Part shown: positions 15,493 to 47,410 of the stretch, piece by piece
Layout: each line of letters begins with the position of its first letter
Numbering within the stretch: position 1 is the first letter of the stretch
Program-made: the position numbers and the translations under genes
Assembly (NCBI GenBank): GCA_035288865.1
Contig: DATDZA010000026.1
Location: 4,534-68,533, forward strand
Reading direction: 5' to 3'
DNA: 64,000 nucleotides
Source: Candidatus Nanoarchaeia archaeon
GTDB taxonomy: Archaea > Nanobdellota > Nanobdellia > Woesearchaeales > GW2011-AR4
The notes under the pieces: model-generated
Databases searched by the model: none
What the model was told of the DNA's origin: nothing
What the model saw: the letters and a program-made list of their open reading frames with translations, nothing else

Positions 15493-15494
15493 AT

Positions 15495-15743: not shown

Positions 15744-15761
15744 AGTTTTTATTCTATGGTT

Positions 15762-16946: not shown

Positions 16947-17013
16947 TTGAAAATAGCAAAGTATTTTAATTTAAAAACCTTTGTATTATTCCTATTTAGA
17001 AGTAGTTACAATT

Positions 17014-17496: not shown

Positions 17497-17550
17497 ATTA
17501 ACGTTGGTTTTCTCATGGTTATTTAAATTTTATTGATTCAAGTAAATAAA

Positions 17551-17568
17551 AGAAGAAATATTTATATT
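17551..17568 (+). promoter_or_regulatory. TATA-like box (AGAAGAAATATTTATATT) about 25-30 nt before the ATG at 17591
   Basis: The spacing suggests a leaderless or near-leaderless transcript. Confidence 0.3.
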
Positions 17569-17590
17569 ATTTCACTAATAGCCAGCAATT

Positions 17591-18001
17591 ATGGGGGAAA
17601 TAAGACTAAGCGGCAGAAGCCTTTCAAGATATGCTCAAGAAGCCAACGGAATTGCAACACGCGTCAGCGATCCCGATGCAGAACTGTTTTTTGTACTTTT
17701 AGAGGGTCCTGATGGAAAAGGTTATTTGCGATGTGATACCGGCCCAACCCACAACCAAACTTACTCAAGGCTGGTAGAGCTAGTAAAAAAATTTGGTTTA
17801 GACTCATCAAAATTTGAAAATATGGGGGGTGGTAAAGTGTCGATTTACAGAGAACGCGGGAATATAAACCTTTTGTTCCATGGAACTGCATATAGGTTGG
17901 GAAAATACGACAGGCAATTTTTGGAAAGAACTGTTAATGAACTATTAGATTCTAAAATATTTATTCCCCATTATGAAAGCATGTCAATACATCACGGATA
18001 G
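17591..18001 (+). CDS. hypothetical protein, 136 aa; paralog of 13..414
   Basis: Shared blocks with 13..414 (see that entry). No family recognised. Confidence 0.5.
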   Translation: MGEIRLSGRSLSRYAQEANGIATRVSDPDAELFFVLLEGPDGKGYLRCDTGPTHNQTYSRLVELVKKFGLDSSKFENMGGGKVSIYRERGNINLLFHGTAYRLGKYDRQFLERTVNELLDSKIFIPHYESMSIHHG

Positions 18002-18003
18002 CT

Positions 18004-18588
18004 TTATTGGATTTTTAGCTTTGAAATAATATTTTTAACTTGTAATTCCATATTTCTTGAATCTTTGCTGTTATCAATAACAAAATCAGCTAATTTTAAT
18101 TTTTCTTTTAATGGCATCTGCGATTTTGTTATTCTTTCAATTTCTTTCTGGCTAAGCTTTCCTTTTTTTAGTAATCTTTTGATTCTAGTTTTGTCATCAC
18201 ACTTGACAACAATAATTTTATTTACAAGCTTTTTTGCATCAGACTCAAGAAGAAGCGGCGCATCAATAATCATATTCTTATTTTTACTTTTTTTAATTAA
18301 TTTTTTTATTTCATCTATTATCATAGGATGGGTTATGGAATTTAATTTTTTCAATTTCTTGTCATTAGAAAAAACTATTTTTTTTAATTTATCACGATTA
18401 ATGGATTTATCTGGATTAACAATCTTATTTCCAAATTCTTTTATAATTTTCCCATATATTAACTTTTTTGGTTTTGATATTTTGTGATACAATTCATCTG
18501 CGTTTATAACTTTAAAGCCATATTTCTCAAATATATTAGAAACTGTAGTCTTTCCCGAGCCGATTGCTCCTGTGATGCCAATTATCAT
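18004..18588 (-). CDS. coaE: dephospho-CoA kinase, bacterial CoaE type
   Basis: MIIGITGAIGSGKTTVSNIF (P-loop) followed by VINADEL, and ITHPMI. 194 aa. Confidence 0.85.
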   Translation of the reverse strand: MIIGITGAIGSGKTTVSNIFEKYGFKVINADELYHKISKPKKLIYGKIIKEFGNKIVNPDKSINRDKLKKIVFSNDKKLKKLNSITHPMIIDEIKKLIKKSKNKNMIIDAPLLLESDAKKLVNKIIVVKCDDKTRIKRLLKKGKLSQKEIERITKSQMPLKEKLKLADFVIDNSKDSRNMELQVKNIISKLKIQ

Positions 18589-18627
18589 TTAAACATTAGT
18601 GGACGCTCATTTTAAAAACATTTCTAA

Positions 18628-21219: not shown

Positions 21220-21631
21220 ACTATTAATAGCTATGTTGAATTTCTGTATTAAAATTCATGAATATTAATACGAAAAAATAAAATTATTTGCGATATTGAA
21301 AATAAAATCTCATAACTTAAATGTTCTTATTCGATAATGCAAAGAAATTTATAAAAGTGTTGGTTCAGATTGTTAGAAAAAATTCAAAACTTAATTAATT
21401 CTAATTTTTCTAACGAATTGTCTAATTTGCCTGGTGTACTTTCCATTTACTTAATCTGGAGTTTTGATAATAACTAGTTTTATTACTACTGCTAAATAAG
21501 CACATATACCAAATATGACCGTAAACTTAATAAATTCAAGTGAATTACCATCACCTTAAAGTTATAATTACGATAGTTGGGGGGTTTGTTGTAAATGGTT
21601 GGAAAAGGGTTTAAGTTTGCACAGATACTTA

Positions 21632-21650: not shown

Positions 21651-21748
21651 TGTAGTTTTGTTTCTAATGGCTGATTTTGCCGTATGCGCATCAGAGCAAG
21701 GCGGAACTCGTTATAATTCTGAAGATAATTTTATTTCGGGTAGGGGGG

Positions 21749-24542: not shown

Positions 24543-24850
24543 CACGTAGCATTATTCGTATTTCTTTGACCTAAAATGCCGCAAGCAATTTGGCTATTTC
24601 CTAAATTACGAAAAGAAAAATACTCACCGCTTTTAAATGGGCCAAATATGAGTTTTTTTAACCAAAGTGGGTATTTTGAGTAGTGAAAAAAACCGAAAGA
24701 TTTATAAATGAGGCAATTGTAAGCTTCACTAACTAATGTGGGAATTAGTGGGTAGTTTCGCTTATAACTCGGAGTAAATCAGTAAAATTTATATAGAAAT
24801 TCTGATTTGTAACTACTTATCTATGATAACATAATATTGGGGGATTATAA

Positions 24851-27800
24851 ATGAATCTAAAAATCAACTTATCTTGCAAAAGTAATGTTCGCCCTTTAAG
24901 AAACTTGGTGCTATTGTTGCTTTTAATAGTTACGGCAGCTCCAGTTTACGCGGATTTAGTCGCTGTTTCACAGTTAGGATACCACCCGAATTCTACAAAG
25001 CAAGTTATAATATACACAAATAGCAGCACAAGTTATACTTCAGCTGAATTAGTCGATGCAAACAACGCAAATATTGTTAAAACAATTTCACTTCTTAAAG
25101 CCAAAAATTATGGTGGCACGAATGTGGAATGTCAGGGAAACGCACCTTGTTATGTTGGGGATTTTTCAGACTTTATGGTGCAGGGCAGTTATTATTTTGA
25201 TATCTCTGGAATAAAATCTCCGACATTTAAGATAGACAGCCAAATATTTAAGGATAATACGCCCACACTTCTTGAATTTTTTGACGCAATGCTTCAGCAG
25301 AATTCAGCATACCACGGGGATTTTCATTCAAATTACCAGCCATCATTTAATGCCATGGCCGATGGAAGTTTTATCATGGAGGCAGATCAGGCATCGCTTG
25401 CCCTCATTAGGCTCGGAAGCGCTTATAGGAAAAATCCTACTTTGTTCACAGGAATTGACAATTATAATATCTTATCTGCAAATAAGCCCGATATGCAAGA
25501 ATACATTTTATCATATGTCGACTATCTTGAAGGATTGCAAGGGCTGGAACTAGAGGAACTGACAGATGGAACTGGTTTCAGACTGAACCCAAATGTTGAA
25601 GTTCAGAATATATTTGTTCCTGGTCCTACAAACTTAACAAACTTGACTGTTTATATCCCGGGAAGCTCCCATGCCATATTAAAATCAGATGTACCAGTGG
25701 TTTCCTTATGCGGAAATGATACGGGAACGGAATGGCAGAAATGTGTGGATGACGCTGCTTTCTATTTCAAATGCCAGATAGACGAACCGTGCCTTAATAT
25801 GACTTATATAGAAAAGACGGGAAAAGTCAAATCAACAAACAATGGATATGCCGTTTCCAGGGGCTGGGGTTATGAGTTTGGATGCTATGTGGATGTTGAT
25901 TTAAATAGTGACATGTTTGACAGCGAGCCAAATCCATGCATGGTATTTTACCCCGAGACTTCTAGGTCTTACGATGTTTATGCGCTTCTTGGATTTTTAG
26001 AATCAGTTCCTGCGGTAAATGATTATTCCTCAATTGAAGGGAATAGTTTGCTTGCAAGGTCCATTAACACATATAATCATATCAAAATAAATGACTCGGT
26101 ATTTTCAGCTAATGACCCAGATGCAGGATTTTTCGGAGCATCTTTATTTTTGCTGTACAATTACACAGCAAACGCTTCATATTTGTTAGAGGCTCATTCA
26201 CTTAAAGACATAGTTGGCACAAATTTTGAATCCGACCACACAAGGGGAAATGAGTTTTACTGGGAAGAATACATTAAAAACAAAAATAATCTGGAGAGCC
26301 GGGGGCTTCCATACCAAGTAAATGCTAAAAATCCCGAAGAATTTTTTACGGCTAAAATATTGTCTGATTATAGCGATTTGGGAGCAGATTCTATGTCGAA
26401 TAACGGAGAAAGGATATTTCAGTATAACAATAACATCCAATTTCAAAACAGCAGGTATATCTTACTTGAAGGGCTTTATGCAACTAAAGCTAATCAATTA
26501 CATCCATCTGCCGATCCGTTTGTTAAAGAAGTCGGAGACAGCCAGCTTTCTTGGCTGACCGGAATGAATTCTGTGCAGAACGGAACCGCAATTGGAAGCC
26601 CGACATTATCAATTAGTTTTATTTTTGGCATAGGAAATTTTCCACAGCAATACCATTCAAGATTGCTCTACGATTCAGGATACAAAAGTTCCAGCGGCGA
26701 CGAGATTATAGGAGTTAGAGGAACAAGCCTGCAGTTCCTTGATCCAGTTAATAACGAATATGTTTATCTGGACGGAATGCAAAATATTTTAGGAAAGTCC
26801 CTGGGAGCTTCGGGCAATAACTGGAGAAATGAAACACAAATTGAACCGTTTCACGTCGGAACTATATTTAACAACGACAAAAGCTACATTCCTGGATGGA
26901 TAAGCGGGCCATATGATACTGTTTCAGACCAAGATCTAATTTTTAATTACAGGGACAATCTTAACACGTATGAATTCACAGAAACAACAAATGAGATCGT
27001 TGCAACAGCAGTCGAGCTATTTGCGTATCTTGATGCCGGCTATAATAACAAACCCCAACATAATGGAATTTATGTGAGCCCGCAAGTAACTCAGAATGCA
27101 ACACTGACTTTTATTACCAATCCAGCGAGCTCAAATATTTATCTCAATAGCCAGTTTAAGGGAATGACCAATTCCTCTGGCATATTTATTTTGCAAAATG
27201 TAGGGCAGGGCAACTACTCTTTTAAAGTTAACAAGTCAGAATATTTCGCATATGAAAAAAATATTTCGGTTTTGGAAGGGATTAATGCAACCATTGACGT
27301 TAATCTGTCATTGATTCCGGTCGTTTTGCAAAATTCAAGCCTTCATGTAATTTCTAATGCAGATAGTATTCAAGTTTACTTAGATAATTTATTGTATGGC
27401 CTAACTAATGCAAGCTATGAAATAAATATTAATAATTTAGTTCCAGGCGATTATAATTTAACGCTTAAGAAAACAGAATATCTCGACAGAGATGTAATTA
27501 TTTCATTGGTATCCGGGCAAAATAATTCAATTGTTCTTAACTTAACCAATATAGTACAAAATGGCACTGTAACAATTACCACTAGCCCCAGCATTGCAGA
27601 TATTTACGTGAATTCAAGCCTTGTTGGCACAACAAATGCATCTGGAAATATATTTTTGAATCTTAATCCCGGAATTTATAGCATAAAGGCAGCAAAATCC
27701 AATTACGTTCCCTCAACAATTTTAGTGGAAATTCAGCAATCGGTAAATAAATTTGCAAATGTATCTCTTGATTTAGATAATACCGTATCAGTTGTTTCAA

Positions 27801-29368
27801 CTGTAACAAATTTAGATTCTGCAGCACAAAATAATATTTATGGCGTAAATTATTCCATGTACGAGCTTGATAATGCCTCATTTTATTTAAGCTTAAATAT
27901 TAACGATACTGTAGCATGGTACATAGATGACATTTTTCAGCAGTCCGAGCCAGGAATTAATTCAACTTTTTATTGGAAGCCTGGAATATTCTGGGCTCCA
28001 ATAGGTCCCGATTACTGGAATGTTCGGCCAGTAAATATTTCAGCAAGACTAACCAATATAAACTTGACCTGGACGGTTGGTGTAGAAGATTTGGTTAACC
28101 CTTATTTTACGGCAATAGATGATTCTTTAGACGTGTCAGGAACTTCTGATACAAAGGTTCATGTGCAAACCAATGATAAAAAAATTAATTTTACAGCTCT
28201 GAATATATCATTGAAAAATATAGAATCTGGCGTGATTAGAAATTTTGCTCTTAATCGCATGCCTGACAATGCTACCGGCGGAACAAACTGGGAATTATCA
28301 ATGGTAAACATCGATTACGGAAGCAATTTTTTAGTAAAAATATATGGCATTAACAATGTTTCCGGCTCGTCAGGAATCTATGAGTTAACTAATGAGAGGG
28401 GGCATTACAGAAATTTTCCTTCGCAAGATCAGCCAAGCGGAAGTGACTCCCCTTCCTCGGACAGCGGAAATGGTGGAGGCGGCAACGGCGATGCAGGAGC
28501 CCAGTCATTTGCTCCTCCGGAAATAATTTATGTAATACTCGATAAAGATACTGTTTTGCCAAATGAGGAGCAAACTGTTACACTGGATGCAAAATACCTG
28601 CCAAACGGAGTAAGTAGAGTTTCGGCGCTATTTTTGCCTCCATCTGGCACTTCAATAATTAAAGAGCTTAGCATAATAAAAGGAAAACCCAGCTATGGCA
28701 CTTGGTTCGCTAGTTTTTCTGCTTCAACTCCTGGATTATACAAACTTTATTCGATAAAACTGTGGACCGAGGATGCTAAAGACCCCCCCACCGAGATTTT
28801 AATTTCAGACAGGTCTTTTTATATTGCCGGTGAGAATGCGATAAATGAAGGAAATCTTGAATTGATATATGAAATTTTAAGTGAAAGCAATGTAAAAAAT
28901 GGAACCAAAGTGCTCCTAACACTTGATGCAAAAGATAAGATCGGCGTTGGGCGAATTAGCGCAAATATAAAATCAACAGGCGGGGAAAATTATGATATAG
29001 AATTGAAACTTTCAAAGGGAAGTAAAAACTACGGCACATGGTCGGGGGAGTTTTTGGCCTCACAGCCAGGAACAACATATTCAGTAGCTTCAGTAACAAT
29101 ATCAAACGGTAAGGAATCAAAGACTTATCAAATTAAAGACAGAAACGTTTACGTAAGCCAGACTTCAAGAATCAGCTCTCTTAATTCAATTACTGCAAAT
29201 ACTATTTCTAATGTGCAAAGATTTTCCGCGCAGTGGGTAGATGCCCTGCTTAAGCGGCCGTGGCTGCCAACAGCTATTGGATTTGGAACAGTGATTGTAA
29301 TGCTAACCTTAATATTTTTTGGCTCTCGATTTACAAAACAGTTCAGCAGATTTAGAAAGAAAAATTGA
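24851..29368 (+). CDS. membrane-anchored surface protein (1505 aa): CelD_N-like Ig domain, GH9-like (alpha/alpha)6 domain, 3 PEGA-like domains, 2 Ig-like repeats and a C-terminal TM anchor
   Basis: VSQLGYHPNSTKQVIIY (CelD_N-like). QLSWLTGMN..SFIFGIGNFPQQYHSR and IPGWISGPYD..TETTNEIVATAVELFAYL parallel GH9 C-terminal blocks. PEGA-like SNPASSNIYLNSQFKGMT..GNYSFKVNKSEY. C-terminal hydrophobic helix plus RFRKKN. Confidence 0.7.
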   Translation: MNLKINLSCKSNVRPLRNLVLLLLLIVTAAPVYADLVAVSQLGYHPNSTKQVIIYTNSSTSYTSAELVDANNANIVKTISLLKAKNYGGTNVECQGNAPCYVGDFSDFMVQGSYYFDISGIKSPTFKIDSQIFKDNTPTLLEFFDAMLQQNSAYHGDFHSNYQPSFNAMADGSFIMEADQASLALIRLGSAYRKNPTLFTGIDNYNILSANKPDMQEYILSYVDYLEGLQGLELEELTDGTGFRLNPNVEVQNIFVPGPTNLTNLTVYIPGSSHAILKSDVPVVSLCGNDTGTEWQKCVDDAAFYFKCQIDEPCLNMTYIEKTGKVKSTNNGYAVSRGWGYEFGCYVDVDLNSDMFDSEPNPCMVFYPETSRSYDVYALLGFLESVPAVNDYSSIEGNSLLARSINTYNHIKINDSVFSANDPDAGFFGASLFLLYNYTANASYLLEAHSLKDIVGTNFESDHTRGNEFYWEEYIKNKNNLESRGLPYQVNAKNPEEFFTAKILSDYSDLGADSMSNNGERIFQYNNNIQFQNSRYILLEGLYATKANQLHPSADPFVKEVGDSQLSWLTGMNSVQNGTAIGSPTLSISFIFGIGNFPQQYHSRLLYDSGYKSSSGDEIIGVRGTSLQFLDPVNNEYVYLDGMQNILGKSLGASGNNWRNETQIEPFHVGTIFNNDKSYIPGWISGPYDTVSDQDLIFNYRDNLNTYEFTETTNEIVATAVELFAYLDAGYNNKPQHNGIYVSPQVTQNATLTFITNPASSNIYLNSQFKGMTNSSGIFILQNVGQGNYSFKVNKSEYFAYEKNISVLEGINATIDVNLSLIPVVLQNSSLHVISNADSIQVYLDNLLYGLTNASYEININNLVPGDYNLTLKKTEYLDRDVIISLVSGQNNSIVLNLTNIVQNGTVTITTSPSIADIYVNSSLVGTTNASGNIFLNLNPGIYSIKAAKSNYVPSTILVEIQQSVNKFANVSLDLDNTVSVVSTVTNLDSAAQNNIYGVNYSMYELDNASFYLSLNINDTVAWYIDDIFQQSEPGINSTFYWKPGIFWAPIGPDYWNVRPVNISARLTNINLTWTVGVEDLVNPYFTAIDDSLDVSGTSDTKVHVQTNDKKINFTALNISLKNIESGVIRNFALNRMPDNATGGTNWELSMVNIDYGSNFLVKIYGINNVSGSSGIYELTNERGHYRNFPSQDQPSGSDSPSSDSGNGGGGNGDAGAQSFAPPEIIYVILDKDTVLPNEEQTVTLDAKYLPNGVSRVSALFLPPSGTSIIKELSIIKGKPSYGTWFASFSASTPGLYKLYSIKLWTEDAKDPPTEILISDRSFYIAGENAINEGNLELIYEILSESNVKNGTKVLLTLDAKDKIGVGRISANIKSTGGENYDIELKLSKGSKNYGTWSGEFLASQPGTTYSVASVTISNGKESKTYQIKDRNVYVSQTSRISSLNSITANTISNVQRFSAQWVDALLKRPWLPTAIGFGTVIVMLTLIFFGSRFTKQFSRFRKKN

Positions 29369-30978
29369 AAATGGGCATTCCAATTAAGAAACAAGGCTGG
29401 AAGCATTTAATGCTCTATTTAATTTTCGGATTAATGAGTTTTGTTCTTATGATGTATTATTTATCGAATACTTTGATTCATTTCACATCATCCCAGCAGT
29501 TCCCAATAAATTCGTTTAAGAGGTTTCCGCTGACTTTTTTGATTTTCCCGGCAGAATTATTTTCATTTTGCTTTGCAATGTACTTTGTTTATAATTTGTT
29601 TACTGATCGGTATAGAAATGAAAAACCTGAAGAGTTGCTAAATAAATCTAGCATTAGAGTTGCCGTTCTAATCCCGGTTTACAATGAACCAAGGGAAATT
29701 GTAGAGAGAACAATTGCAGCATGCAAAAAATTAATCTGGCCTGGGGGTGTTAGGATTTATTTGCTCGATGATTCTTCCAGCGAGGAGGATATGGCAAGTA
29801 TGAAAATTTTATCCAAATATTACGGCTGTATGCTGGTAAGAAGGAGTGACAGGACTGGCTTTAAAGCAGGAAATATAAACAATGCGATAAAAAATGCAGT
29901 AAGAGAGGAATATTTTGTGGTTTTCGATTCAGATCAGGCTCCTGAGCCAAAATTTTTAGAGGAAGTAATGGATTACTTTAGCAACATTTCCGTCGGATTT
30001 GTGCAAACGCCTCAGCATTTTATTAATGTCACAACGCCGCTGGAAAGGGCAGCTAAGATTGGAACGGATATTTTTTATAATTCGCAATGTGTAAGTAAGG
30101 CCCACGATGGAGCGTTGCCATTTTGTGGAACCAATGCTGTTATAAGGACTTCGGCCTTTTTGTCTGTAAACGGCTTTTCGTATTTCTCATCCACGGAAGA
30201 TATTGAGCTTGGCCTTAGGTTGAATTCAGTTGGATACTTTGGCATTTATGTTCCAAAAATACTAGTATACGGCTACGCGCCTCCAGATTTTGTCGCATAT
30301 TCATCACAGCAGTACCGGTGGGCAAATGGGAATCTGGCAATTTTAAGAGAGCATTGGAAAAAAATTTTGTTTGGAAAATTTAACCTAAGGCAGCAAATTC
30401 ATACAGTTTTTACTTTGGGATGGTGGGTCATAGGTATTGTAACTTTAATTTATGTGATAGTTCCAATACTTTCATTACTATTGGGCGGAACCCATCATAC
30501 ATGGCTGCCAACGACATTGCTTCTGCTTTTATTTCTAAATGTTGTTACCGGCATAAGCATGATTTATTTTTCACAGCATGCACGAAATGACAATGATAAA
30601 ATAAGAATTTCAGATGCATTCTTACAGTATAGTCTGATAACCAATAGCATGTTTATTTACATTAAGGCGGCAATAAACGTGCTCCTTGGAAGATATGTGG
30701 GATTTATTAGAACAAATAAAAAAAGGACACAATCAGGATGGTGGAAAATAAAGTGGAACTTATTATTGTCAGCAATATGCTTTGGATTTAGCACTTTTGC
30801 ATTATACCATGCTGCAATTTCTAGTGATATGCAGCAGATAAGGACCTATCTTCCCGTATCGATTTGGCTTTTATTCTACAGTGTCATGCTTGCAAGCTCA
30901 ATTATATTTGTCGGATACGATTTACCAAAGAAAAATGAAAAACCACGCTTGGGCACGAAAGGTGTTTCAATTGGGTGA
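29365..30978 (+). CDS. processive family-2 beta-glycosyltransferase, cellulose-synthase (BcsA/CelA)-like, without a PilZ domain
   Basis: VLIPVYNEP, LLDDSS, VVFDSDQ, FCGTNAVIR, TED (30193..30201), QQYRW (30307..30321). TM helices both N- and C-terminal. The start is either the TTG at 29365 (4-nt overlap with the upstream gene) or the ATG at 29371. Confidence 0.85.
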   Translation: MKMGIPIKKQGWKHLMLYLIFGLMSFVLMMYYLSNTLIHFTSSQQFPINSFKRFPLTFLIFPAELFSFCFAMYFVYNLFTDRYRNEKPEELLNKSSIRVAVLIPVYNEPREIVERTIAACKKLIWPGGVRIYLLDDSSSEEDMASMKILSKYYGCMLVRRSDRTGFKAGNINNAIKNAVREEYFVVFDSDQAPEPKFLEEVMDYFSNISVGFVQTPQHFINVTTPLERAAKIGTDIFYNSQCVSKAHDGALPFCGTNAVIRTSAFLSVNGFSYFSSTEDIELGLRLNSVGYFGIYVPKILVYGYAPPDFVAYSSQQYRWANGNLAILREHWKKILFGKFNLRQQIHTVFTLGWWVIGIVTLIYVIVPILSLLLGGTHHTWLPTTLLLLLFLNVVTGISMIYFSQHARNDNDKIRISDAFLQYSLITNSMFIYIKAAINVLLGRYVGFIRTNKKRTQSGWWKIKWNLLLSAICFGFSTFALYHAAISSDMQQIRTYLPVSIWLLFYSVMLASSIIFVGYDLPKKNEKPRLGTKGVSIG

Positions 30979-33193
30979 TTATTACGGTTATAATGACGAG
31001 GAGATGATACATTCTCCAGGACAATTAAAGGGCGCTTATAAGTGGGTTTGCATCGCGCTTGCATTATTATTTATTTCAATGGTGTGGTTAGCACTTGATT
31101 ACAAGCTCCTGTTTGGAAAATCATGGATGTCGGATACTTACGATAACGAGGATTGGAGAACTAATGAAGGAAATTTGCACACTTTCGGAGCATGGGACTT
31201 GGAGAACCATATATGGAAGACTGAATATATTATTAAAAATTTTCCCAATTTTAACTGGAACCCTTACTGGTATTTAGGAATGCCTCTATTAAAGTACTAC
31301 CAAATCGGGTTTTATTTTCTGCATTGGGCAGTTGTTTCTTTGACAGGTCTTGACGTCGCAAGAGCATCAATAATTTTAATAATATTTAGCCATCTTCTGG
31401 CTACATATCTTACATTTTTACTCTGCTATAAAGTCTCAAGAAGAATTTTGATTTCTGCCCTTTGCTCAACTTTTATCTTATCATCCACTTTCATAAGTCT
31501 AAGAAGTTATGGTTGGGAGCCGATTACTGTAGTATTCCTGTTCCTGTATCCTCTTGGTCTCTTGCTTTTTCTAAAAAACCCGCTGAAGCCCTTTAGGTTT
31601 TGGCTAATTGCGGTCCTTGGCATTTCATATTTATGCCATCCGCTCTTATGGTTTTCCCTGTGCATGACAATGGGCATCTATCTTTTATCAATTATGGTTA
31701 GAAGAAAACACCGCGACGAAAAATTGGCGCATAAGCATTACTTATTCCAGTTTTTTGCGCTCGTATTTTGCAGCATTCTTCTGGGCGCAGTTCAGTTTTT
31801 CCCCCAGATAACTTACAAGCAAGCAACTTCTGGAGCCCACATGGGGGTTAAATATCTTCCTTACTACCAGGTTCCACCTAATATAATTGAGTTGAAAGAT
31901 TTTTTCTTCGATGCCGGCAACCTGAAGGGCCCAGGTCCAATAATTATGATTGCATTTTTTCTGCTTATAATATTTTCAATAATAAGTTACAGGGAAAAAA
32001 GAAAAATAGCCTCCCCAAAATTGTATAATCATGAGTTGGCAGCAGGCTTAACTTTGGTTCTTGCTACAATGGTTTTGTTTTATTACATGGAGTATTACAA
32101 TATTTTTCCCATGAATATTTTACGCTCGATCCAATACCACAGAATTATTCCAGAGTTTATCATAGCAGGGGCAGTTCTTGTCGCGTCCCTTTCAAATATA
32201 GCGAACACTTCCAAAAAGAAAGTGATGTATTACACCATGATTACTGCATTTGTGCTTGCAACAGGAATTATTATTTATAATGTGCAGAGCAAATGGATTA
32301 CAAGCGATTCTATACTTTCAAAACCAGAATTTATTAATGATAAATTTGTGGGACGCATCAGCTTTCCCTACACCGACCAAAGCCTTGCTGTAAGAAATTC
32401 ATTTACATATATACCTCAAACTTATGGTTATTATGAACAGGGCATAACAAATCCTTATTCTGACGAACTCTTTTCAGTTTCTTCGGGTTATCACAATGCA
32501 AATGTTAGCCTTATTTATCTTAAGGCTGCAAATATAGAAAGGCTATATGTTAATACTGAGGAGGGCGACAGGGACAAGATTGTAATGTACAGGATGAATA
32601 ACTCTCTAAACTTTCATTCAAACAATAATTCAAGATATTCATATTTTCAGGTGCCCCTTGAAGACGCGTCGTATGCCGAGGCGGTTGATGGCAAATTGGC
32701 AGCAGAAGTTCAATCTTTACAGCCAAAATGCCGAGTGTTTTTTAAGGAGAAATATTGCGGAAGTTATAATGAAGAGTTTGTGAGCATTGATAAAAGTGAA
32801 ATCTATTATCTTTCAGAGTATGTAAATCTTTTGGAATCATTTTATACAGCTGATGCCAACATGATAATGAAAGATCCCCAGCATTATTCAATCTTCGTCA
32901 AAAAAGCGAAAATAGATACTGCTGTTGTTGTAAAAATGACCTATGATAAGGACTTTGTGGCATCTATTGGCAATAAGAAAGTTAAGGTTGAGCCGTTCGG
33001 TCCTTATTTTATGCTTATTACACCACAACAATCAGGGGATTACAATATTGATTTAGTTTATCACGTCAGCAGGCCAATAGTTATAGGCGCATGGGTTAGT
33101 GTTATGGTTTTTATAGGTCTTGCTATTATATTCGGCCTTAAGCGAAAAATCAAAGCGCTAAAATTTATCAACTTTAACGATGGTGATATGTAA
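30935..33193 (+). CDS. large polytopic membrane protein (about 750 aa, 12 or more TM, extracytoplasmic C-terminal domain, terminal TM); GT-C-like topology, function unknown
   Basis: Hydrophobicity pattern read by eye. Start is ambiguous (30881 track, 30935 or 31004). No AglB WWDYG motif seen. Confidence 0.55.
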   Translation: MKNHAWARKVFQLGDYYGYNDEEMIHSPGQLKGAYKWVCIALALLFISMVWLALDYKLLFGKSWMSDTYDNEDWRTNEGNLHTFGAWDLENHIWKTEYIIKNFPNFNWNPYWYLGMPLLKYYQIGFYFLHWAVVSLTGLDVARASIILIIFSHLLATYLTFLLCYKVSRRILISALCSTFILSSTFISLRSYGWEPITVVFLFLYPLGLLLFLKNPLKPFRFWLIAVLGISYLCHPLLWFSLCMTMGIYLLSIMVRRKHRDEKLAHKHYLFQFFALVFCSILLGAVQFFPQITYKQATSGAHMGVKYLPYYQVPPNIIELKDFFFDAGNLKGPGPIIMIAFFLLIIFSIISYREKRKIASPKLYNHELAAGLTLVLATMVLFYYMEYYNIFPMNILRSIQYHRIIPEFIIAGAVLVASLSNIANTSKKKVMYYTMITAFVLATGIIIYNVQSKWITSDSILSKPEFINDKFVGRISFPYTDQSLAVRNSFTYIPQTYGYYEQGITNPYSDELFSVSSGYHNANVSLIYLKAANIERLYVNTEEGDRDKIVMYRMNNSLNFHSNNNSRYSYFQVPLEDASYAEAVDGKLAAEVQSLQPKCRVFFKEKYCGSYNEEFVSIDKSEIYYLSEYVNLLESFYTADANMIMKDPQHYSIFVKKAKIDTAVVVKMTYDKDFVASIGNKKVKVEPFGPYFMLITPQQSGDYNIDLVYHVSRPIVIGAWVSVMVFIGLAIIFGLKRKIKALKFINFNDGDM

Positions 33194-34447
33194 ATGACTA
33201 GCTTTGTTTGGCCCAAAAAGAGAATTTATTTTTTGATAGGGATGGTTGTCGTTTATATTGTTTTTGGAGTTTCGGTTAATTTGGCTTCCAATTCAGGTTT
33301 GATTCAAAAAGAGAAACCGACTCCGGTAGAGCATAATTTTGGAGATGTAATACCTGAGGGCATGCAGAAAAATTATGAGAAGCAACTAGAAACAGCCGAA
33401 GTATTTGTTGCAAAAAAATTACTGCAGCGAAATGGCCACATTAGATTGACTTATATTTTGTACAATAACGGGACATCCACTTATGACTATAATACAAACA
33501 GTGAGGCAATAAGCTATTATCTTCTATGGAATGCGATAGGTAAAAATAAAGAAGAATTTGACAATGCACTGGTATTTTTGGAAACTTACATGATTCATCC
33601 AGATCACAATTACATGATGTGGCGGTTAAACGCTTCAGAGATGCCGCAAGATGATGGAAGCAATATTGCATCCGATGCTGATTTGCGTGCGATTAAGGCG
33701 CTCCTGATTGCAGAAAAACATTGGGGCGATTTGCGATACTCCCAACTTATTGACAGGCTGTCTTTAGGAGTTGAGAAAGTTGCAATTACAAAAGATGGGC
33801 TTCTTGCACCATATGGCGGCTCATCAGGAAAAGATTCAATCTGGACTGCCCAGGAAGTTTGGCTTTCGTATAGCGATTTCACTGTGTTTGAGAGCCTTGC
33901 AAAAAGAAGGGGTGAGCCTTGGACAACTATGAATGAAAATATGAAAAAGTTAATATTAAAATCACAACTTTACAATGGGCTTTATAATTCACAGCTAACC
34001 GAAGAAAAGAAATTTGGAAACGGCATCGATGCAGGCGGCTATGGAATAAATTCTATGTGGATAATGATTAGAAACGCCGAAAGCCAGGATCCGGAGCTTA
34101 GGGCATCAGCGCAAAAATCACTTGACTTTTACAAGCTAAAATTTAGCCAGGACGGAGAGCTATATGCCCTCTACAGTTCAAACGGCGACGCTTTGAGCCC
34201 GTCTGATGCGCCTTGGGTTTATGCATTAGTGGGGAGAGCCGCAGTCCGCATGGAAGACGAGGAGTTTAGCAAACAAATTATTGATAAGCTCCTAAATAGC
34301 CAGGTCAATGATGAAAACTCGCAGCTTTTTGGGGCATTTCCTGAACCTGATAAAGATTTGACAAAAGTTAGCCAATTCACAATGCAAGAAAGCATCCTTA
34401 CTTTGCAGGATTTTATAGACATGCAGGAAAAGTCCTCAATTAAGTAA
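33194..34447 (+). CDS. membrane-anchored glycoside hydrolase family 8 (BcsZ-like endoglucanase)
   Basis: ASDADLRAIKALLIAEKHW (33668..33724) fits the GH8 signature at 17/19 positions. NSEAISYYLLWNA parallels the catalytic SEGQxYGM block. N-terminal TM anchor. Its ATG directly abuts the upstream stop. Confidence 0.75.
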   Translation: MTSFVWPKKRIYFLIGMVVVYIVFGVSVNLASNSGLIQKEKPTPVEHNFGDVIPEGMQKNYEKQLETAEVFVAKKLLQRNGHIRLTYILYNNGTSTYDYNTNSEAISYYLLWNAIGKNKEEFDNALVFLETYMIHPDHNYMMWRLNASEMPQDDGSNIASDADLRAIKALLIAEKHWGDLRYSQLIDRLSLGVEKVAITKDGLLAPYGGSSGKDSIWTAQEVWLSYSDFTVFESLAKRRGEPWTTMNENMKKLILKSQLYNGLYNSQLTEEKKFGNGIDAGGYGINSMWIMIRNAESQDPELRASAQKSLDFYKLKFSQDGELYALYSSNGDALSPSDAPWVYALVGRAAVRMEDEEFSKQIIDKLLNSQVNDENSQLFGAFPEPDKDLTKVSQFTMQESILTLQDFIDMQEKSSIK

Positions 34448-34449
34448 AA

Positions 34450-35403
34450 ATGGTAAAAAATTATTTTGTAATATTATTTATTTTTTTGACAATTATTTTT
34501 GTAGTCAACGCACATTTCATTGCCAGTGATCCCAAAAGCGAATATGAAATCTATCTTTTTTTTGACAACGCAAATCCGCTTTCACAAGAATCCGAAAAAT
34601 TCAGAATAAACATTTTAAATCCTGTGTCCGGGCTTCCCATCGAAACATTAGATAAAGGACACGAAAGTATTCTCCATGTTTTTATTGTCAGAAATGATTT
34701 GGATTTTTTCGACCACATGCGCGTCGAAGATTTTGCGGACGGGCTGGAAAATAGCATATGGGGGAGCTACACATTTAATTACACATTCCCTATGGCTGGC
34801 AAATATGCTATTGCGGTCTCCTATACCCCTCATGGAATTACTTTTTTAAATTTAGAAAACGCAAGCATTGCAGGCAAGGAAACTTTGGCAGCACCTAATT
34901 ATGATTTTGCTCTGGAAAAAAATTTTGATGGCTATGATATCACATTAAAACACCCAAAATACTTGGAAGCGGAAAAAGAGCATGAATTTAATTATTATAT
35001 CAGGAAAAATGGGGTAGAAATTAGTGACTTGCAGCTTTACTTAGGCTCCGAAATTAATTTATTTGTGATAAAGGATGATTTATCCTCTGCTGACCTTGCC
35101 CATTCTTACGTACCAAAGGAAACTAATGATTCCGAAGGGGCAATGCAATTATATTATGGGCCGACAGTTCCGGTTCACCTTATATTTAAGACGCCAGGAA
35201 AATATGTCTTATTTGGAGAATTCAAGCATGATGGAAAAGTAATTAAAACAAAATTTATGGTTGATGTAAAGCCTAAAATAACGAATCTAATGAATAGTGC
35301 TTATAACTATTACGCATATGTAAATTATGTATACATAATATTGATATTGGTTGCTGCCGCTATATCTTATATCATTTGGCGCAGAATGGGGAAACCTTTA
35401 TAA
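34450..35403 (+). CDS. bitopic envelope protein (signal peptide, two beta-sandwich-like repeats, C-terminal TM anchor)
   Basis: Internal duplication: ILHVFIVRNDLDFFDHM...FPMAGKYAIAV versus INLFVIKDDLSSADLAH...FKTPGKYVLFG. C-terminal YIILILVAAAISYIIWRR. Starts 2 nt after the GH8 stop. Confidence 0.55.
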   Translation: MVKNYFVILFIFLTIIFVVNAHFIASDPKSEYEIYLFFDNANPLSQESEKFRINILNPVSGLPIETLDKGHESILHVFIVRNDLDFFDHMRVEDFADGLENSIWGSYTFNYTFPMAGKYAIAVSYTPHGITFLNLENASIAGKETLAAPNYDFALEKNFDGYDITLKHPKYLEAEKEHEFNYYIRKNGVEISDLQLYLGSEINLFVIKDDLSSADLAHSYVPKETNDSEGAMQLYYGPTVPVHLIFKTPGKYVLFGEFKHDGKVIKTKFMVDVKPKITNLMNSAYNYYAYVNYVYIILILVAAAISYIIWRRMGKPL

Positions 35404-35512: not shown

Positions 35513-38500
35513 ATGAATGCAAATAAAGGCAATTTTTATTTTAGTGGTTTACAGAATATAATTTTGTACTCTGTACTTATAGCCTTATCGTTTGTTTTAA
35601 TTTCAAGCCCTATTTTTGCTCAAGGAAGCCAGGGAGTGATCGTAAGGGTTACAGGCTTTGATCCAGTTACTAACGTATACAATTTTTCCTGCATAACGCC
35701 AGCCAAAACGCCTGCAAGTAATATGGCAAATGAAAAGTATTTTGACATTGATCCCAATCCATCATTTTATCCAAAAAAATATAATTTAAGGTCTCCTGAT
35801 GATAATGTAACATGGCACCTTGACCCTTTAAATTTTACAGAAGAGGTCCATAGTAACGCAATGTATCACATTTATTGTGAGATACAAAATTTTACAGCGC
35901 CAAACGGTTCTCAAAATTTAGCTTCTGAATTTCATGTTGATTTGCGGACAACCCACAATCAAAAAGAGCCAAACATTTATGTAATTGATTCTGAAGGTCC
36001 GAGAGTAACGCTAAAATGTGACCCGCCGCCTGGTGTAAAAAGGTATTCCATAAATTGGAAGCTAAGGGAACGGGGAAACACTATTTCTTATCCACAACTG
36101 GCCGACAAAAGAATTGTTAATATTACAACTCCAAGGTCTACGGCCGGATGGGATGTTGTATGCGACGTTACAGACAAAGACACAGGCAAATTTTCCACAT
36201 GGGATATGCCAATTGAGTTTTTTCCAAGTGGGCCGGCATATATTCCGACTATTGAGGGTTGCGTCGCTAACGAGCCATGCACCTGGGCCCCTAATATTAA
36301 CGGAGTTCCTTTGAATGGAAGTTTAATTGTTAATGTAACTCTTAATTCATCTCCTGCGGTGGTAAACTTATACATAAATGAGGTTTTCAAGGGCACTACA
36401 ACTCTCTCTGGATTCTTAACCATACAAAACATTACACCGGGCCTTCATAATTTAGTTATTAAAAAAGCCGGTTACGAAGAGATAAGCACTTTAATTCCCA
36501 TTGCATCCGGCAAAGAATTATACAGGAATTATTCCATAAGCGAGAATGTAAGTGAGCCGGTAACTTCGCAATGCTTTAATTCTGTTTCCACAATTCCAGC
36601 AAACTGCACTTCTGGAACTTTCATAACCGATTCTGCAAGTGGAAACTGTAGAACTCTGGTGTGTTCAAATGGTAGCTCGAGCATGCAGATTCTTTCATGC
36701 GACAAACCTGATAATTTGACGACGAAACAATTTTTCGAGCTATATAAACAATCCAAAGTTGGAACGGCTGTAACTCAAATATGTATTGGAAATACGTGCA
36801 TCAAAGACGGCGGATATGCAAAAAGCGATAATTTTCCGATATGTGTGGGAAATGCAACATCGCAAGGGCCCTTTAACGGCAGTCTTAGGGTTTCGACGAA
36901 TCCAAATCTTGCTGACATATATCTTAACGGCGCCTTTATAGATAACTCCGGGCTTATTGGTTTGCTAACCATTAATAATTTAATTCCGGGAAATTATCAA
37001 TTGCTTGTGAATAAGACGGACTATAAACCCAATTTAAGCCAGGTAATAATTGCAGCCGGTCAGCTTAAGGATGTTCAAATAAATTTAGTCCCAGAATCTT
37101 CACCGTCCAATACAACTGAAAATAATGCAACTAACTCAACAAATACGAACGTTACAACAAATGTAACTACAGTTTGTTTTTCTTCATTATCGACCTTGCC
37201 AGTAAATTGCAGCGGGGGAATTATTATGCAAAATGGATCTTCTGGCAACGGCAGAACAATTGTATGCACAAACGGGACAGACAGCATGAAAGTTCAGGGA
37301 TGGGAAAAGCCAGACAGCGGTGTAAAACAATATTTTGATTTGTATAAGCAATCGCAAGTTGGTTCAACAAAATTCCAGATATGCATAGGCACAACTTGCA
37401 TTAAAGACGGCGGATACGCAAAAAGCACGAATTATCCAATATGCATGAATCAAACAACACAAACGAACCCAACACCCCCCGTATCAATTCAAAATGCATC
37501 TTTAAATATTACAACAGTCCCATCAATAGCTGACGTTTATTTAAACGCAGTACTATTAGGAACAACTGATTCGAGCGGAAATTTAATAGTTAAAAATATT
37601 ACACCAGGAAACTATAATTTAATGGTAAAAAAATCAAATTACATTGATAACAGCAGCTCAATAATATTAAATCCGGGACAAAATTTATCGCTGAATAGAA
37701 CTTTGGCTCAGAGTACGAATAATCCTGTAAATGTAGATTCTTCAAAAGAAGTATTTGTTAGAATTGTGTCAGCAGATCCAGCAACGAGAACATACACTTT
37801 TAGCTGCAGGACCTATCCTGAAACTCCATTTGTTAAGGACTGGTTTATACGGCCGGATGATGGTGATAGTTTTTTTGACGATCCTGAAGAGAATATAACC
37901 CAAGATCTGCCTTCAAATGAATTCTTCACTTATACATTCAAGAATAACACGTTTTATCATATTAGTTGCCTTGTAGTTAATAGCTCAAATTTTAGTGATG
38001 TTGAAAGAGGAGATGTTCATATCGACCTAAGAAATTATTCATGGAATCCGCAAGTTGTCCCTCTAAGCGGAGACGGATTAACTGCTTCATACGAATGCAG
38101 ATATAACAGTTCAGATTATAATGTAGAATGGCAAATGTTTAATGCTGAAACCAATCAGTATAGCCAATTGGGTACAAATAAGATAATAACTTCAACAGTA
38201 CCGACCTCCGGAAATTATGATTATTTTTGTAACGTTAACGGGCAGAGTTTTAGGACAGGTTTGCCAATTGAATACTTCGACCAGGGAGCTCCTTATTTCC
38301 CGGATAAATTTGGAATTCCAGATGGAATAAAGCATGTATGGGTAAGAAATAATACAGCAAACAAACATAGTAAAGAACCAGTTATTGTAAGAGTTACAAA
38401 TTATAACTCCACTAAAAGAAATTATTCATTCTCATGCAACGTTGCAGTAAATGGTTTTACGACTCAAAAGCATTGGACTATAAGGGCAGGAGTTCCACAA

Positions 38501-45140: not shown

Positions 45141-46010
45141 ATGAAAGATGTTAGTAAATCGATTCCAAATAGCTCTAGTCTTAAGCAGGACACGAATTAC
45201 AGGCTGCAAGCTTGTATTATACTTCCGACTTACAATGAGGCCGGGAATATAAAAAAGCTTCTTGATGAGATTTTTCTATGCGAAATTCTTCAGCCATATA
45301 AAAATAACAAGTTATCTTTAAGCATTTTGATAGTGGATGACGGGTCTCCTGATGGGACTGCTGAAATTGTTAAAACGCACACTGAATTCAATAAGAAGGT
45401 CATCCTCCTTGAAAGATCAAAAAAACAAGGACTCGGATCTGCCTACGTGGCAGGAATGGAATATGCAATTAATAACCTAAAGCCAGACGTGGTTTTCGAG
45501 ATGGATGCAGATTTATCTCATGATCCAAAAGACATATTTAAGATGCTTCTCCAGATAAAGAAAGGGTCAGATTTTGTTATTGGCTCAAGATACACTCTCG
45601 GAGGCTCAATTCCTAAAGAATGGGGAATACATAGAAAAATCATTAGCAAAGTTGCAAATACTTATGCCAGGTTAATGCTTGGAATTTGGTCAATACATGA
45701 TTGCACTGGCGGATTTAGGGCGATAAGAGTTTCATCGCTGGAAAAAGTTAACCTAAGTTCTTTGAATGTGAGGGGTTATGCATTCCAGATTTCTCTTCTT
45801 AATGCTATGATTCAGAATAACTGCAGTATAAGCGAAGTGCCAATTTCATTTCGGGATAGGACTGAAGGTTCCAGCAAGATGAGACTAAGAGATATAACGG
45901 AAGTGGGTACTTTAGTGCTCCGTTTGGGACTGCAAAAACAACTTACACTTATGGACTTTACAAAGAATAAGAATTCAGGACCCACACCACAAACATTTAC
46001 AAATGACTAA
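45141..46010 (+). CDS. dolichyl-phosphate mannosyl/glucosyl-transferase-like GT2 (Dpm1 family)
   Basis: ILPTYNEAGNI, IVDDGSPDGT, EMDADLSHDP and IGSRY blocks. Confidence 0.85.
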   Translation: MKDVSKSIPNSSSLKQDTNYRLQACIILPTYNEAGNIKKLLDEIFLCEILQPYKNNKLSLSILIVDDGSPDGTAEIVKTHTEFNKKVILLERSKKQGLGSAYVAGMEYAINNLKPDVVFEMDADLSHDPKDIFKMLLQIKKGSDFVIGSRYTLGGSIPKEWGIHRKIISKVANTYARLMLGIWSIHDCTGGFRAIRVSSLEKVNLSSLNVRGYAFQISLLNAMIQNNCSISEVPISFRDRTEGSSKMRLRDITEVGTLVLRLGLQKQLTLMDFTKNKNSGPTPQTFTND

Positions 46011-47388: not shown

Positions 47389-47410
47389 AATTCAATTTGG
47401 AAAAACAAAA

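Follow-up and report, generated by a model that had tools for sequence, protein, structure and literature searches.

What does a DPANN archaeon make with a gene cluster that places a cellulose-synthase-like glycosyltransferase beside proteins resembling two families of cellulase and a membrane protein that matches no sequence family? The question is raised by five open reading frames (ORF1 to ORF5) in a 64-kb stretch of DNA, the whole of which was analyzed and is called the window here; all coordinates are window positions. Its exact-match proteins at NCBI (HLC60747 to HLC60751) come from a metagenome-assembled genome (MAG) named "Candidatus Nanoarchaeia archaeon," a class placed in the phylum Nanobdellota within the DPANN archaea. 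A first-pass annotation, made from the letters alone, had read the five genes as a candidate archaeal cellulose or beta-glucan synthase operon. Our analysis points to a cluster, conserved in Woesearchaeota/Nanoarchaeia, for a synthase-dependent surface glycan that would receive its decoration outside the cell, with a dolichyl-phosphate (Dol-P) sugar as donor, a reading to which we give a probability of roughly 0.6.

In the mechanism that we propose, the family 2 glycosyltransferase (GT2) encoded by ORF2 would polymerize a nucleotide sugar at the cytoplasmic face and thread the beta-linked chain, most likely a beta-1,4-linked and gluco-configured backbone, through its own membrane channel. The C-terminal transmembrane (TM) helix and twin Ig module of ORF1 would serve the synthase as its obligatory single-TM partner, and the stalk and the glycoside hydrolase family 9 (GH9)-fold head of the same protein would hold or process the chain outside the cell. 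ORF3, a predicted GT-C-fold enzyme, would move a sugar from Dol-P-sugar onto the emerging chain or, less likely, onto the ORF1 protein. The donor would be made by a small GT2 resembling dolichyl-phosphate mannose synthase (DPMS) and handled by a GtrA-type domain that is fused or adjacent to ORF1 in most relatives, and a membrane-anchored GH8 enzyme (ORF4) would trim or release chains, as BcsZ does. Gene content, folds, motifs, synteny, and fusions were observed here, and from them we infer which polymer is made, which sugar is donated and to what acceptor, and which proteins touch one another; the first-pass annotation had likewise put forward the identity of the polymer as an inference, and we concur.

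The synthase and its conserved neighborhood

ORF2 has the motifs of a processive synthase of the BcsA type. All of the strings reported from its translation (VLIPVYNEP, LLDDSS, VVFDSDQ, FCGTNAVIR, TED, and QQYRW) are present, and so are the flanking TM helices, with two N-terminal and at least four C-terminal helices predicted around a cytosolic GT-A domain. Across 31 members of the GT2 family, DDS (135-137), DSD (188-190), TED (277-279), and QQYRW (315-319) are invariant, as are Lys167, Gly169, Asn170, Gln214, Pro216, Cys254, Gly255, Thr256, Phe447, Thr450, and Lys452. The BcsA-type accessory motifs FKAGN, QTPQ, and FCGT occur together with a gating-loop-like FIRTNK (F-x-x-T-x-K in the family); the reference motifs in BcsA are HAKAGN-like, QTPH-like, and FFCGS-like, with a gating loop FxVTxK (partly after PMC11022532).

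Profile searches place the enzyme nearer to BcsA/CelA than to other GT2 groups. In Pfam it matched Glyco_trans_2_3 (5.7e-26) and, weakly, Cellulose_synt; the best NCBIfam model was CelA (TIGR03030; 1.2e-51, 175.7 bits), ahead of PgaC (56.7 bits), MdoH (∼56 bits), and NodC (39.1 bits). The closest solved relatives in a single-sequence search of the PDB were Rhodobacter BcsA (7e-33) and E. coli BcsA (6e-29). A profile of 31 family members strengthened the BcsA match to 3e-49, with plant CesA and CslF6 next among processive synthases (∼1e-7), and recovered no hyaluronan or chitin synthase from the PDB at E <= 0.01. Pairwise identity was 32% to E. coli BcsA (119 bits) versus 22% to PgaC (50 bits). 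The GT2 thus lies nearest to bacterial BcsA/CelA and not to PgaC, NodC, or MdoH. Because the CelA match spans profile positions 64 to 578 of 714, it covers the TM and catalytic core and ends where the PilZ domain begins; the protein itself also stops at that point, and Pfam found no PilZ domain in it. Across all cluster proteins, Pfam and NCBIfam searches returned no BcsB, PilZ, or other Bcs subunit. The reading of the locus as a cellulose-type system therefore stands in part: it has a BcsA-type synthase, a GH8 enzyme, and a GH9 fold, but it lacks PilZ and BcsB, adds a GT-C protein, and encodes a synthase that scores far under the CelA cutoff.

Roughly 109 homologs share more than 53% identity with the window GT2, essentially all of them from Woesearchaeota/Nanoarchaeota MAGs, and the next relatives, at ∼30 to 34%, are found in bacteria and Thermoplasmata. 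In a neighbor-joining tree rooted on PgaC, the archaeal synthases were monophyletic on a long stem in 100 of 100 bootstraps; their nearest neighbors, in ∼80% of replicates, were sequences from Thermoplasmata, Omnitrophota, and Planctomycetia. E. coli BcsA lies within the ingroup. The sequence places the GT2 in a distinct PilZ-less clade of BcsA-type processive synthases but does not tell what the enzyme makes. The idea that the cluster reached this genome by recent horizontal transfer was rejected, given the bootstrap result for the archaeal clade and a GC content in the cluster (0.36 to 0.38) that matches its flanks and the rest of the window. The archaeal context itself, also claimed in the first-pass annotation, agrees with the NCBI source name and with hallmark genes in the flanks (exosome Rrp4 and Rrp41-type RNase PH, proteasome alpha, Cbf5 with its DKCLD-TruB-PUA architecture, FtsZ, and an Lhr helicase).

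We compared gene order in 24 close loci from GTDB species representatives, together with loci fetched by exact protein look-up. Some 20 related loci from archaea share the order ORF1-synthase-GT-C-GH8. Of the 23 loci with enough flank, 21 have ORF3 next after the synthase, and GH8 comes after ORF3 in 20 of 20. The three core junctions in these relatives are 4-nucleotide (nt) overlaps or gaps of no more than 2 nt, and the full five-gene arrangement recurs in at least 3 metagenome assemblies from the same population. Conservation of the gene order, which had been proposed as a check, is thus observed for every gene except ORF5, which encodes a bitopic protein with a TM helix at each end and a faint resemblance to YtkA. 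None of the 24 related loci encodes a homolog, and the protein forms a singleton 90% cluster; since homologs are absent, ORF5 appears to be a lineage-specific passenger outside the conserved core rather than a cluster member, as it had been listed.

Bacterial relatives of the synthase (∼30% identity) occur as fusions of GT2 with GH8 (two proteins) and of GT2 with GH26 (P0118 and a Coriobacteriia protein). In five Rhodococcus loci, a BcsA-like GT2 is fused to a PMT_2 (GT-C) domain, and the next gene encodes a DPMS-like GT2. Such fusions speak for the view that synthase plus hydrolase, and synthase plus GT-C plus polyprenyl-phosphate-sugar synthase, are functional units. The Rhodococcus fusion seems to be uncharacterized and could serve as a tractable model for the synthase-plus-GT-C logic.

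Two further observations concern the surveyed contigs. Eleven contigs titled Alphaproteobacteria, Acidobacteriota, Methanosarcinales, or Limisphaerales carry a Woesearchaeal-type synthase with 53 to 64% identity to the window protein, and all but one of them (L027) also carry flanking cluster genes; their titles are probably MAG binning or taxonomy-label errors. In the Nanoarchaeota contig L002, a likely integrated mobile element with a phage-type integrase, a Prim-Pol, a D5-type primase-helicase, and a resolvase lies right after GH8 (L002 positions 15118 to 21416).

ORF3 and the proposed sugar-donor module

The third gene had been described simply as a polytopic membrane protein, a label that we replace. 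By sequence, ORF3 has no match in Pfam or NCBIfam and, even as a family profile, none in the PDB at E <= 10; its family of 107 members is confined to Woesearchaeota-type MAGs, and a relative bears the source name "hypothetical protein." Its predicted topology comprises ten N-terminal TM helices, an extracellular domain of ∼260 amino acids (aa), and a final TM helix (11 in all). An AlphaFold2 (AF2) model built with 39 homologs reached a pLDDT of 83.7, and the top 23 PDB matches of that model in Foldseek were all GT-C enzymes (E 5e-7 to 9e-3), including AftD, yeast and human STT3, AftA, AglB, PglB, DPY19, and ArnT. A search of 1.84 billion representatives with the family profile found 581 proteins, and the distant ones that we sampled carry PF10131 (PTPS_related), DUF6541, or YfhO, families that we take to be members of the GT-C clan. 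Alignment of the ORF3 family with 14 PTPS_related/YfhO-type proteins by hhalign gave a probability of 99.95% (E 1.5e-38) over 626 columns.

GT-C enzymes carry a catalytic acid in the first extracytoplasmic loop. Loop 1 of ORF3 contains an invariant AWDLExHIWK (Asp88, Glu90, His92, and Lys95), which hhalign aligned with a D-x3-H-x2-K motif of the PTPS_related-type proteins, Asp88 falling opposite a nearly invariant Asp. On its modeled fold and these distant alignments, ORF3 is a GT-C glycosyltransferase, apparently a divergent branch of the PF10131 "PTPS_related" superfamily. It probably uses a polyprenyl-phosphate sugar donor, given its genomic association with a DPMS-like GT2 and a GtrA domain.

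That association is clearest in the relatives, most of which encode the GT2/GtrA/GT-C trio together. A small GT2 of ∼290 aa opens the cluster, immediately upstream of its other genes and ahead of the ORF1 homolog, in 13 related loci; a GtrA/DPMS TM domain is fused to the N terminus of the ORF1 homolog in 12, and in three more (L017, L019, and L020) GtrA is encoded on its own, after the small GT2 and before the ORF1 homolog. The window encodes an ortholog of the small GT2 (49 to 56% identity), whose best PDB match is the Dol-P-Man synthase of P. furiosus (5mlz; 2.7e-29), followed by GtrB and ArnC. Given the linkage of GT-C, Dol-P-sugar synthase, and GtrA in the relatives, the locus is not a simple analogue of BcsA plus BcsZ, and its product is probably modified.

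The simplest competing account is a plain cellulose operon, in which a linear beta-1,4-glucan is left unmodified, ORF3 is noncatalytic and acts as a scaffold or a guide resembling BcsB, trimming falls to the GH8 and GH9-like proteins, and the Dol-P-sugar genes serve general protein glycosylation. BcsA is indeed the closest solved and profiled relative of the GT2, both hydrolase types are present, and in the window the Dol-P-sugar synthase lies 10 kb away with GtrA absent; the extracellular domain and single TM end of ORF3 also recall the topology of BcsB. Three observations make this account rather unlikely nonetheless: the invariant acidic, His, and Lys residues in loop 1 of ORF3 are common to a large GT-C superfamily and argue for catalysis; the small GT2 and GtrA are tied to the cluster in most relatives, GtrA even by fusion to ORF1; and the related Rhodococcus synthase is fused to a GT-C domain beside a DPMS-like gene.

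A second account accepts the GT-C/Dol-P-sugar module but makes the ORF1 protein, and not a polysaccharide, its substrate, by O- or N-glycosylation in the manner of protein O-mannosyltransferases (PMT) or AglB. ORF1 has 39 N-x-S/T sequons, a density of 2.6 per 100 aa against ∼0.5 in the remaining proteins of the cluster, as well as a Ser/Gly-rich linker, and the GtrA domain is fused to its homologs; the Foldseek matches of ORF3 moreover include the protein-acting STT3, AglB, PglB, DPY19, and PMT-like enzymes. Yet the GT-C gene always lies beside the synthase and GH8, the Rhodococcus GT-C domain is fused to the synthase, which better fits a nascent glycan as acceptor, and ORF3 has no WWDYG-type oligosaccharyltransferase motif. 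We regard protein glycosylation as quite improbable and favor decoration of the emerging glycan.

The hydrolase-fold proteins and the identity of the backbone

The GH8 call for ORF4 holds. The string on which it had been based, ASDADLRAIKALLIAEKHW, is present in the translation, the Pfam model PF01270 matches at 48.5 bits against a cutoff of 24 (8.4e-13), the catalytic acid Glu104 is kept, and a single N-terminal TM helix is predicted to anchor the enzyme outside the cell. Its closest solved relative is an uncharacterized Clostridium GH8 enzyme (3ren; 7.8e-14 over residues 49 to 407) and not BcsZ (3qxf; 9e-4). When ORF4 was aligned with BcsZ of E. coli and with 16 orthologs from archaea, its Glu104 and Asp161 fell opposite Glu55 and Asp116 of BcsZ; both residues are invariant in the 17 archaeal members. 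A nearby invariant R-x-AES-x-D could provide the base, as in other GH8 subfamilies.

ORF1 is a modular surface protein that starts with a signal peptide and ends in a TM anchor. Its first domain is a CelD_N Ig-like domain, the module with which "theme B" GH9 enzymes begin, and it is through this domain only that the ORF1 family profile matched solved GH9 enzymes in the PDB (e.g., CelD, 6e-06). For the (alpha/alpha)6 domain that follows, which has a large beta-rich insertion at residues ∼233 to 370, the evidence comes from structure prediction: an AF2 model of residues 1 to 750 (30 homologs; pLDDT 87.9) returned GH9 enzymes as all of its top 36 PDB matches in Foldseek (E 1.2e-17 to 1e-4; TM-score <=0.72 on the target). 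Among them are endoglucanases and exo-glucosaminidases (5dgq) as well as a cellobiohydrolase, a xanthanase, and a xyloglucanase, and the top ones all act on beta-1,4 gluco-configured backbones, decorated ones included. The GH9 model PF00759 does not match window ORF1; it matches 2 of 30 relatives, only one of them (P0131) above the cutoff (1e-08, 35.4 versus 27.7 bits, profile positions 166 to 441).

Comparison of the ORF1 family with validated GH9 sequences by hhalign gave a probability of 42% (E 2.6e-4), with the N-terminal half aligned unreliably. This alignment matched the His/Arg signature and the Arg317 region with T. fusca Cel9A (the sequence used is 100% identical to PDB 1js4) and placed SFIFGIGNFPQQYHSR opposite Cel9A SYVVGFGNNPPRNPHHR. 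The family itself has the invariant segments SFIFGIG-x-FP-x-Q-[FY]-HSR and N-Y-x-D-x3-T-Y-E-F-T-E-[ST]-T-N-E, and ORF1 keeps both SFIFGIGNFPQQYHSR and YRDNLNTYEFTETTNE; the latter fits the PROSITE-type GH9 pattern at all but one position. The candidate acids are Glu711 and Glu715, both nearly invariant. By helix register, Asp171 could be the counterpart of Cel9A Asp58, while the position of Asp55 is variable. The GH9 fold and homology of the head are thus supported, and the head retains a candidate catalytic acid. The earlier GH9-like call survives for the CelD_N domain and the fold; against it, PF00759 does not match, the DAGD motif is absent, and the head is dispensable in several relatives.

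This dispensability emerged when ORF1 was split into modules and each was searched in 25 related loci. The GH9 head was found in 14 loci and is missing in several (L010, L020, L021, L024, and L086); L023 encodes it apart, in a gene farther downstream. The C-terminal ∼300 residues, in which each of the two Ig-like repeats has an invariant YGTW, immediately precede the synthase in all related loci, and no other part of ORF1 is so constant. This module matches Big_7 in 14 of 21 members and has weak filamin-type Ig matches in the PDB. By analogy, we infer that it is a candidate single-TM partner of the synthase.

Both hydrolase types could also be taken at face value, as enzymes that degrade environmental cellulose next to an unrelated GT2. 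GH8 and GH9 are classical cellulase families, and surveys of carbohydrate-active enzymes (CAZymes) would count them as cellulolytic capacity. Membrane anchoring of the hydrolases, tight or overlapping junctions with a processive synthase in a conserved order, and the fusion of related synthases to GH8 make a catabolic role very improbable indeed; in addition, the cluster encodes no sugar transporter or beta-glucosidase, and the GH9 head lacks DAGD.

A biosynthetic locus could still build a backbone other than beta-1,4-glucan. GT2 enzymes with the QxxRW motif make chitosan- or poly-N-acetylglucosamine (PNAG)-like polymers, mannans, curdlan-type polymers, and mixed-linkage polymers alike, so a chitosan/PNAG-like polymer, a beta-mannan or glucomannan, a curdlan-type beta-1,3-glucan, or a mixed-linkage glucan all have to be weighed. 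GH8 includes chitosanases and licheninases, GH9 includes exo-glucosaminidases (5dgq among the Foldseek matches), the best solved relative of ORF4 is not BcsZ, and the synthase has some bacterial relatives with a fused GH26 domain, whose family consists mostly of mannanases and lichenases. Furthermore, a nucleotidyltransferase follows GH8 in two lineages, and its best match, below the cutoff, is mannose-1-phosphate guanylyltransferase. On the other side, the PgaC, NodC, and MdoH profiles score three- to fourfold below CelA, the family profile matched no hyaluronan or chitin synthase structure, the cluster has no deacetylase, and we know of no mannanases in GH8 or GH9. We therefore consider another backbone unlikely. 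A cellulose-like backbone is the likeliest because two unrelated hydrolase families have beta-1,4 gluco-configured substrates; we rate a backbone of that general type as reasonably probable, and plain cellulose as less so.

Several findings weigh against a decorated beta-1,4 gluco-configured glycan made in this way. Sugar and linkage are read from the families of the associated hydrolases alone, and on the resemblance of the nucleotidyltransferase to mannose-1-phosphate guanylyltransferase a mannose-containing backbone is equally possible. The synthase falls well below equivalog cutoffs (699.1 bits for TIGR03030; 126.4 versus 992 bits for NF008558), and it belongs to a long-stemmed clade of its own. 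As for the hydrolases, the BcsZ base Asp243 falls in an alignment gap, so the catalytic base of ORF4 could not be located, and DAGD, which holds the base pair Asp55/Asp58 of Cel9A, is replaced in the ORF1 family by an invariant x-A-D-G-S-F; because DAGD is missing, the GH9-like head may be a binding domain and not an enzyme. PDB and Pfam searches found no similarity to BcsB in the ORF1 C-terminal module, the candidate partner of the synthase. Finally, in two loci (L020 and L086) ORF3 is not directly downstream of the synthase, and in the window the donor module is split: GT-C belongs to the cluster, the small GT2 lies at a distance of 10 kb, and tblastn found neither a GtrA-like sequence nor a nucleotidyltransferase in the 64 kb.

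The most specific form of our proposal is a hybrid pathway for a cellulose-like surface polymer in Woesearchaeota-type DPANN archaea, as yet reported from no domain of life, in which a PilZ-independent synthase would extrude a beta-1,4-glucan, a new GT-C family would glycosylate it outside the cell from a Dol-P sugar, and a GH9-derived anchor would hold the polymer. Under this proposal the single fused protein of Rhodococcus would have the same synthase-plus-GT-C logic. We advance it tentatively and regard it as doubtful in this exact form.

Gene layout, neighboring genes, and comparison with known systems

The five ORFs lie on the plus strand at the positions first assigned to them (Table 1). 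The ORF1 stop codon, TGA, occupies 29366 to 29368, and the GT2 could start at TTG 29365 or at ATG 29371; the 4-nt overlap reported for this junction exists with the TTG start but becomes a 2-nt gap with the ATG that the public gene call uses (P0001, 535 aa). The GT2 stop codon is at 30976 to 30978, and ORF3 has three possible start codons, TTG 30971, ATG 31004, and ATG 30935, the last of which was chosen in the public annotation (P0155, 752 aa). The two alternatives noted earlier for this junction (30935 or 31004, against a GT2 end at 30978) and the spacings of 0 nt between ORF3 and GH8 and of 2 nt between GH8 and ORF5 were all read in the sequence. Upstream of ORF1 is an AT-rich intergenic spacer of 333 nt, in which a TATA-like TTTATATA (24788 to 24795) and a Shine-Dalgarno-like GGGGGAT (24839 to 24845), both read directly, may form a promoter and leader; a T-rich spacer of 109 nt follows ORF5. 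Scans of the whole 64 kb for tRNAs and Rfam families gave no match.

Table 1. Positions of the cluster genes, their modules, and associated features in the 64-kb window
Feature	Position	Strand	Basis or details
Putative archaeal promoter and leader	24784..24850	+	Direct sequence reading; putative function
ORF1	24851..29368	+	1505 aa; HLC60747.1
CelD_N Ig-like domain, ORF1 residues 37-122	24959..25216	+	Pfam PF02927, 1.2e-09
GH9-fold (alpha/alpha)6 domain (modeled), ORF1 residues ∼125-745	25223..27085	+	AF2 model, Foldseek
PEGA/CarboxypepD_reg-type beta-sandwich stalk, ORF1 residues ∼751-1175	27101..28375	+	Pfam PEGA, 3.2e-13, two stretches
ORF1 C-terminal module	28376..29365	+	Ser/Gly-rich linker, two Ig-like repeats, KxPxxPT, TM helix
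ORF2, GT2 synthase	29365..30978	+	537 aa (TTG start) or 535 aa (ATG start)
ORF3, predicted GT-C	30881..33193 (ORF); from ATG 30935	+	770 aa (ORF); 752 aa (from ATG 30935)
ORF4, GH8	33194..34447	+	417 aa
ORF5	34450..35403	+	317 aa
Possible accessory, 1945-aa secreted protein	35513..41350	+	PEGA, PKD, GSDH-type beta-propeller
DPMS-like soluble small GT2	45141..46010	+	Pfam, PDB match, synteny; no TM helix; 10 kb downstream of cluster

Giant secreted proteins flank the cluster at 21677-24517, 35513-41350, and 41428-44229 (minus strand), with six DUF4215 domains, PEGA/PKD/GSDH domains, and MopE repeats, respectively. The second of these, the 1945-aa protein with a glucose/sorbosone dehydrogenase (GSDH)-type propeller, might be a loosely associated accessory; a homolog with 41 to 58% identity over the propeller adjoins the cluster in five related loci (L004, L012, L020, L023, and L086), and the propeller is comparable to the Streptomyces oxidase GlxA that partners a synthase. 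A Cys-rich module of ∼90 aa (C..G.I..D...GCR..C....C.K....FEMY...C.G..C...G..KS..P.C), for which there is no Pfam model, seemed by eye to be common to all three giant proteins; a pattern search matched only the 1945-aa protein, and BLAST finds this module repeated in cluster neighbors of many related loci. The N-terminal ∼450 aa of the 933-aa protein at 41428-44229 (minus strand) were tried as a further GH8 domain on the basis of TDEFSQVG and ASDATARIIIAL, noted by eye, and were rejected: phmmer gave no relevant PDB match, and BLASTP against ORF4 gave an E value of 0.8.

Elsewhere in the window, positions 2838 to 13867 hold an alpha-glucan/glycogen gene set with GH15 (3565-4560), the amylo-alpha-1,6-glucosidase GDE_C (5630-7606, minus strand), a eukaryote-type Glycogen_syn (PF05693, E 1.6e-159; 7842-9626, minus strand), a GT4/GT5 starch-synthase-like gene (10686-11897), and GH57 (12662-13867); a GT3-type glycogen synthase is notable for a DPANN archaeon. 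An S19e-like ribosomal protein, recognized by eye, and small basic proteins lie at 46481-48147, and an archaeal proteasome-alpha/Rrp4/RNase PH exosome superoperon lies at 58254-63017; both regions are useful as taxonomic anchors.

Part of this locus is already known, in that automated annotation labels the GT2 (cellulose synthase catalytic subunit) and the GH8 (glycosyl hydrolase family 8); at NCBI ORF1 is a PEGA domain-containing protein and ORF5 a hypothetical protein. Römling 2022 (PMC10086821) only likens a Woesearchaeota GT2 to the cellulose synthase core. The first-pass annotation knew of no experimentally defined archaeal cellulose synthase operon, and our literature search found no description of such an operon in archaea, nor of its GH9-fold partner, its GT-C enzyme, or a cellulose-type synthase with a GtrA/GT-C module.

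If our reading is correct, no system for a cellulose-like exopolysaccharide would have been defined in archaea before this one, and the ∼10 kb that a lineage with very small genomes spends on it would imply a role in the cell envelope, a matrix, or attachment to a host. It would give a function to an uncharacterized GT-C family that has no Pfam model, and it would introduce a new pathway logic, the extension of a synthase-dependent backbone with lipid-phosphate-sugar decoration outside the cell, which the bacterial fusions would independently support. It would also extend the rule that cellulose-type synthases pair with lineage-specific, nonhomologous single-TM partners, and it would caution CAZyme surveys against counting GH8 and GH9 genes in these archaea as a sign that cellulose is degraded, since they probably encode accessories of biosynthesis. 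Its small size makes the cluster amenable to heterologous expression.

Among known systems, plant CesA with KORRIGAN shares with this locus the combination of a cellulose-type processive GT2 and a membrane-anchored GH9-fold protein. KORRIGAN is a type II membrane protein, whereas ORF1 has a C-terminal anchor, a long stalk, and no DAGD, and there is no close sequence kinship between the two systems. The systems for phosphoethanolamine (pEtN) cellulose (BcsG) and acetylated cellulose (wss) too have an operon-encoded membrane enzyme that modifies the exiting chain from a lipid-linked donor; they differ in using an alkaline-phosphatase-type BcsG where we find GT-C, a phospholipid where we propose Dol-P-sugar, and pEtN or acetyl groups where we propose a glycosyl group.

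The bacterial cellulose operons (bcsA-bcsB-bcsZ of Rhodobacter and E. coli and ccsA-ccsB-ccsZ of Clostridioides) resemble this locus in having a processive GT2 with BcsA motifs and a gating-loop motif, next to which a single-TM extracytoplasmic partner is encoded; they also include a gene of the GH8 endoglucanase type and show tight translational coupling. They differ from the archaeal cluster in that the latter has no PilZ/cyclic di-GMP (c-di-GMP) domain and no BcsB, BcsC, or other Bcs subunit, has its partner ORF1 upstream and unrelated to BcsB, adds a GH9-fold head and a GT-C protein, and resides in an archaeal host. All characterized bacterial systems consist of a core synthase, a neighboring and translationally coupled single-TM partner, and a glucanase, and BcsB, CcsB, and GlxA fill the same partner slot although they are mutually nonhomologous (PMC11022532). 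In Streptomyces CslA-GlxA-CslZ, as here, a BcsA-like synthase has an adjacent and coupled membrane-anchored partner that is not BcsB, with a glucanase downstream (PMC11022532). The archaeal partner is an Ig/PEGA/GH9-fold protein and not a copper radical oxidase, there is no lytic polysaccharide monooxygenase, and GT-C is present; CslA also retains part of the PilZ motif and responds to c-di-GMP, whereas the archaeal GT2 has no PilZ.

For the decoration step, the closest parallel is with the three-component systems of GT2, GtrA-family protein, and GT-C (GtrB/GtrA/GtrC and CsbB/GtcA/YfhO), which decorate polymers outside the membrane (PMC5836110 and PMC8035078). In the archaea the module would sit inside a synthase-dependent polysaccharide cluster and not in a teichoic-acid or O-antigen pathway; GtrA is fused to a GH9-like surface protein in relatives, and in the window the module is split and GtrA missing. 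The shared elements are a DPMS/GtrB-like GT2 that would load polyprenyl phosphate, a GtrA-family domain, and a GT-C enzyme that would act on a preformed polymer, and the distant relatives of ORF3 match YfhO, PTPS_related, and DUF6541.

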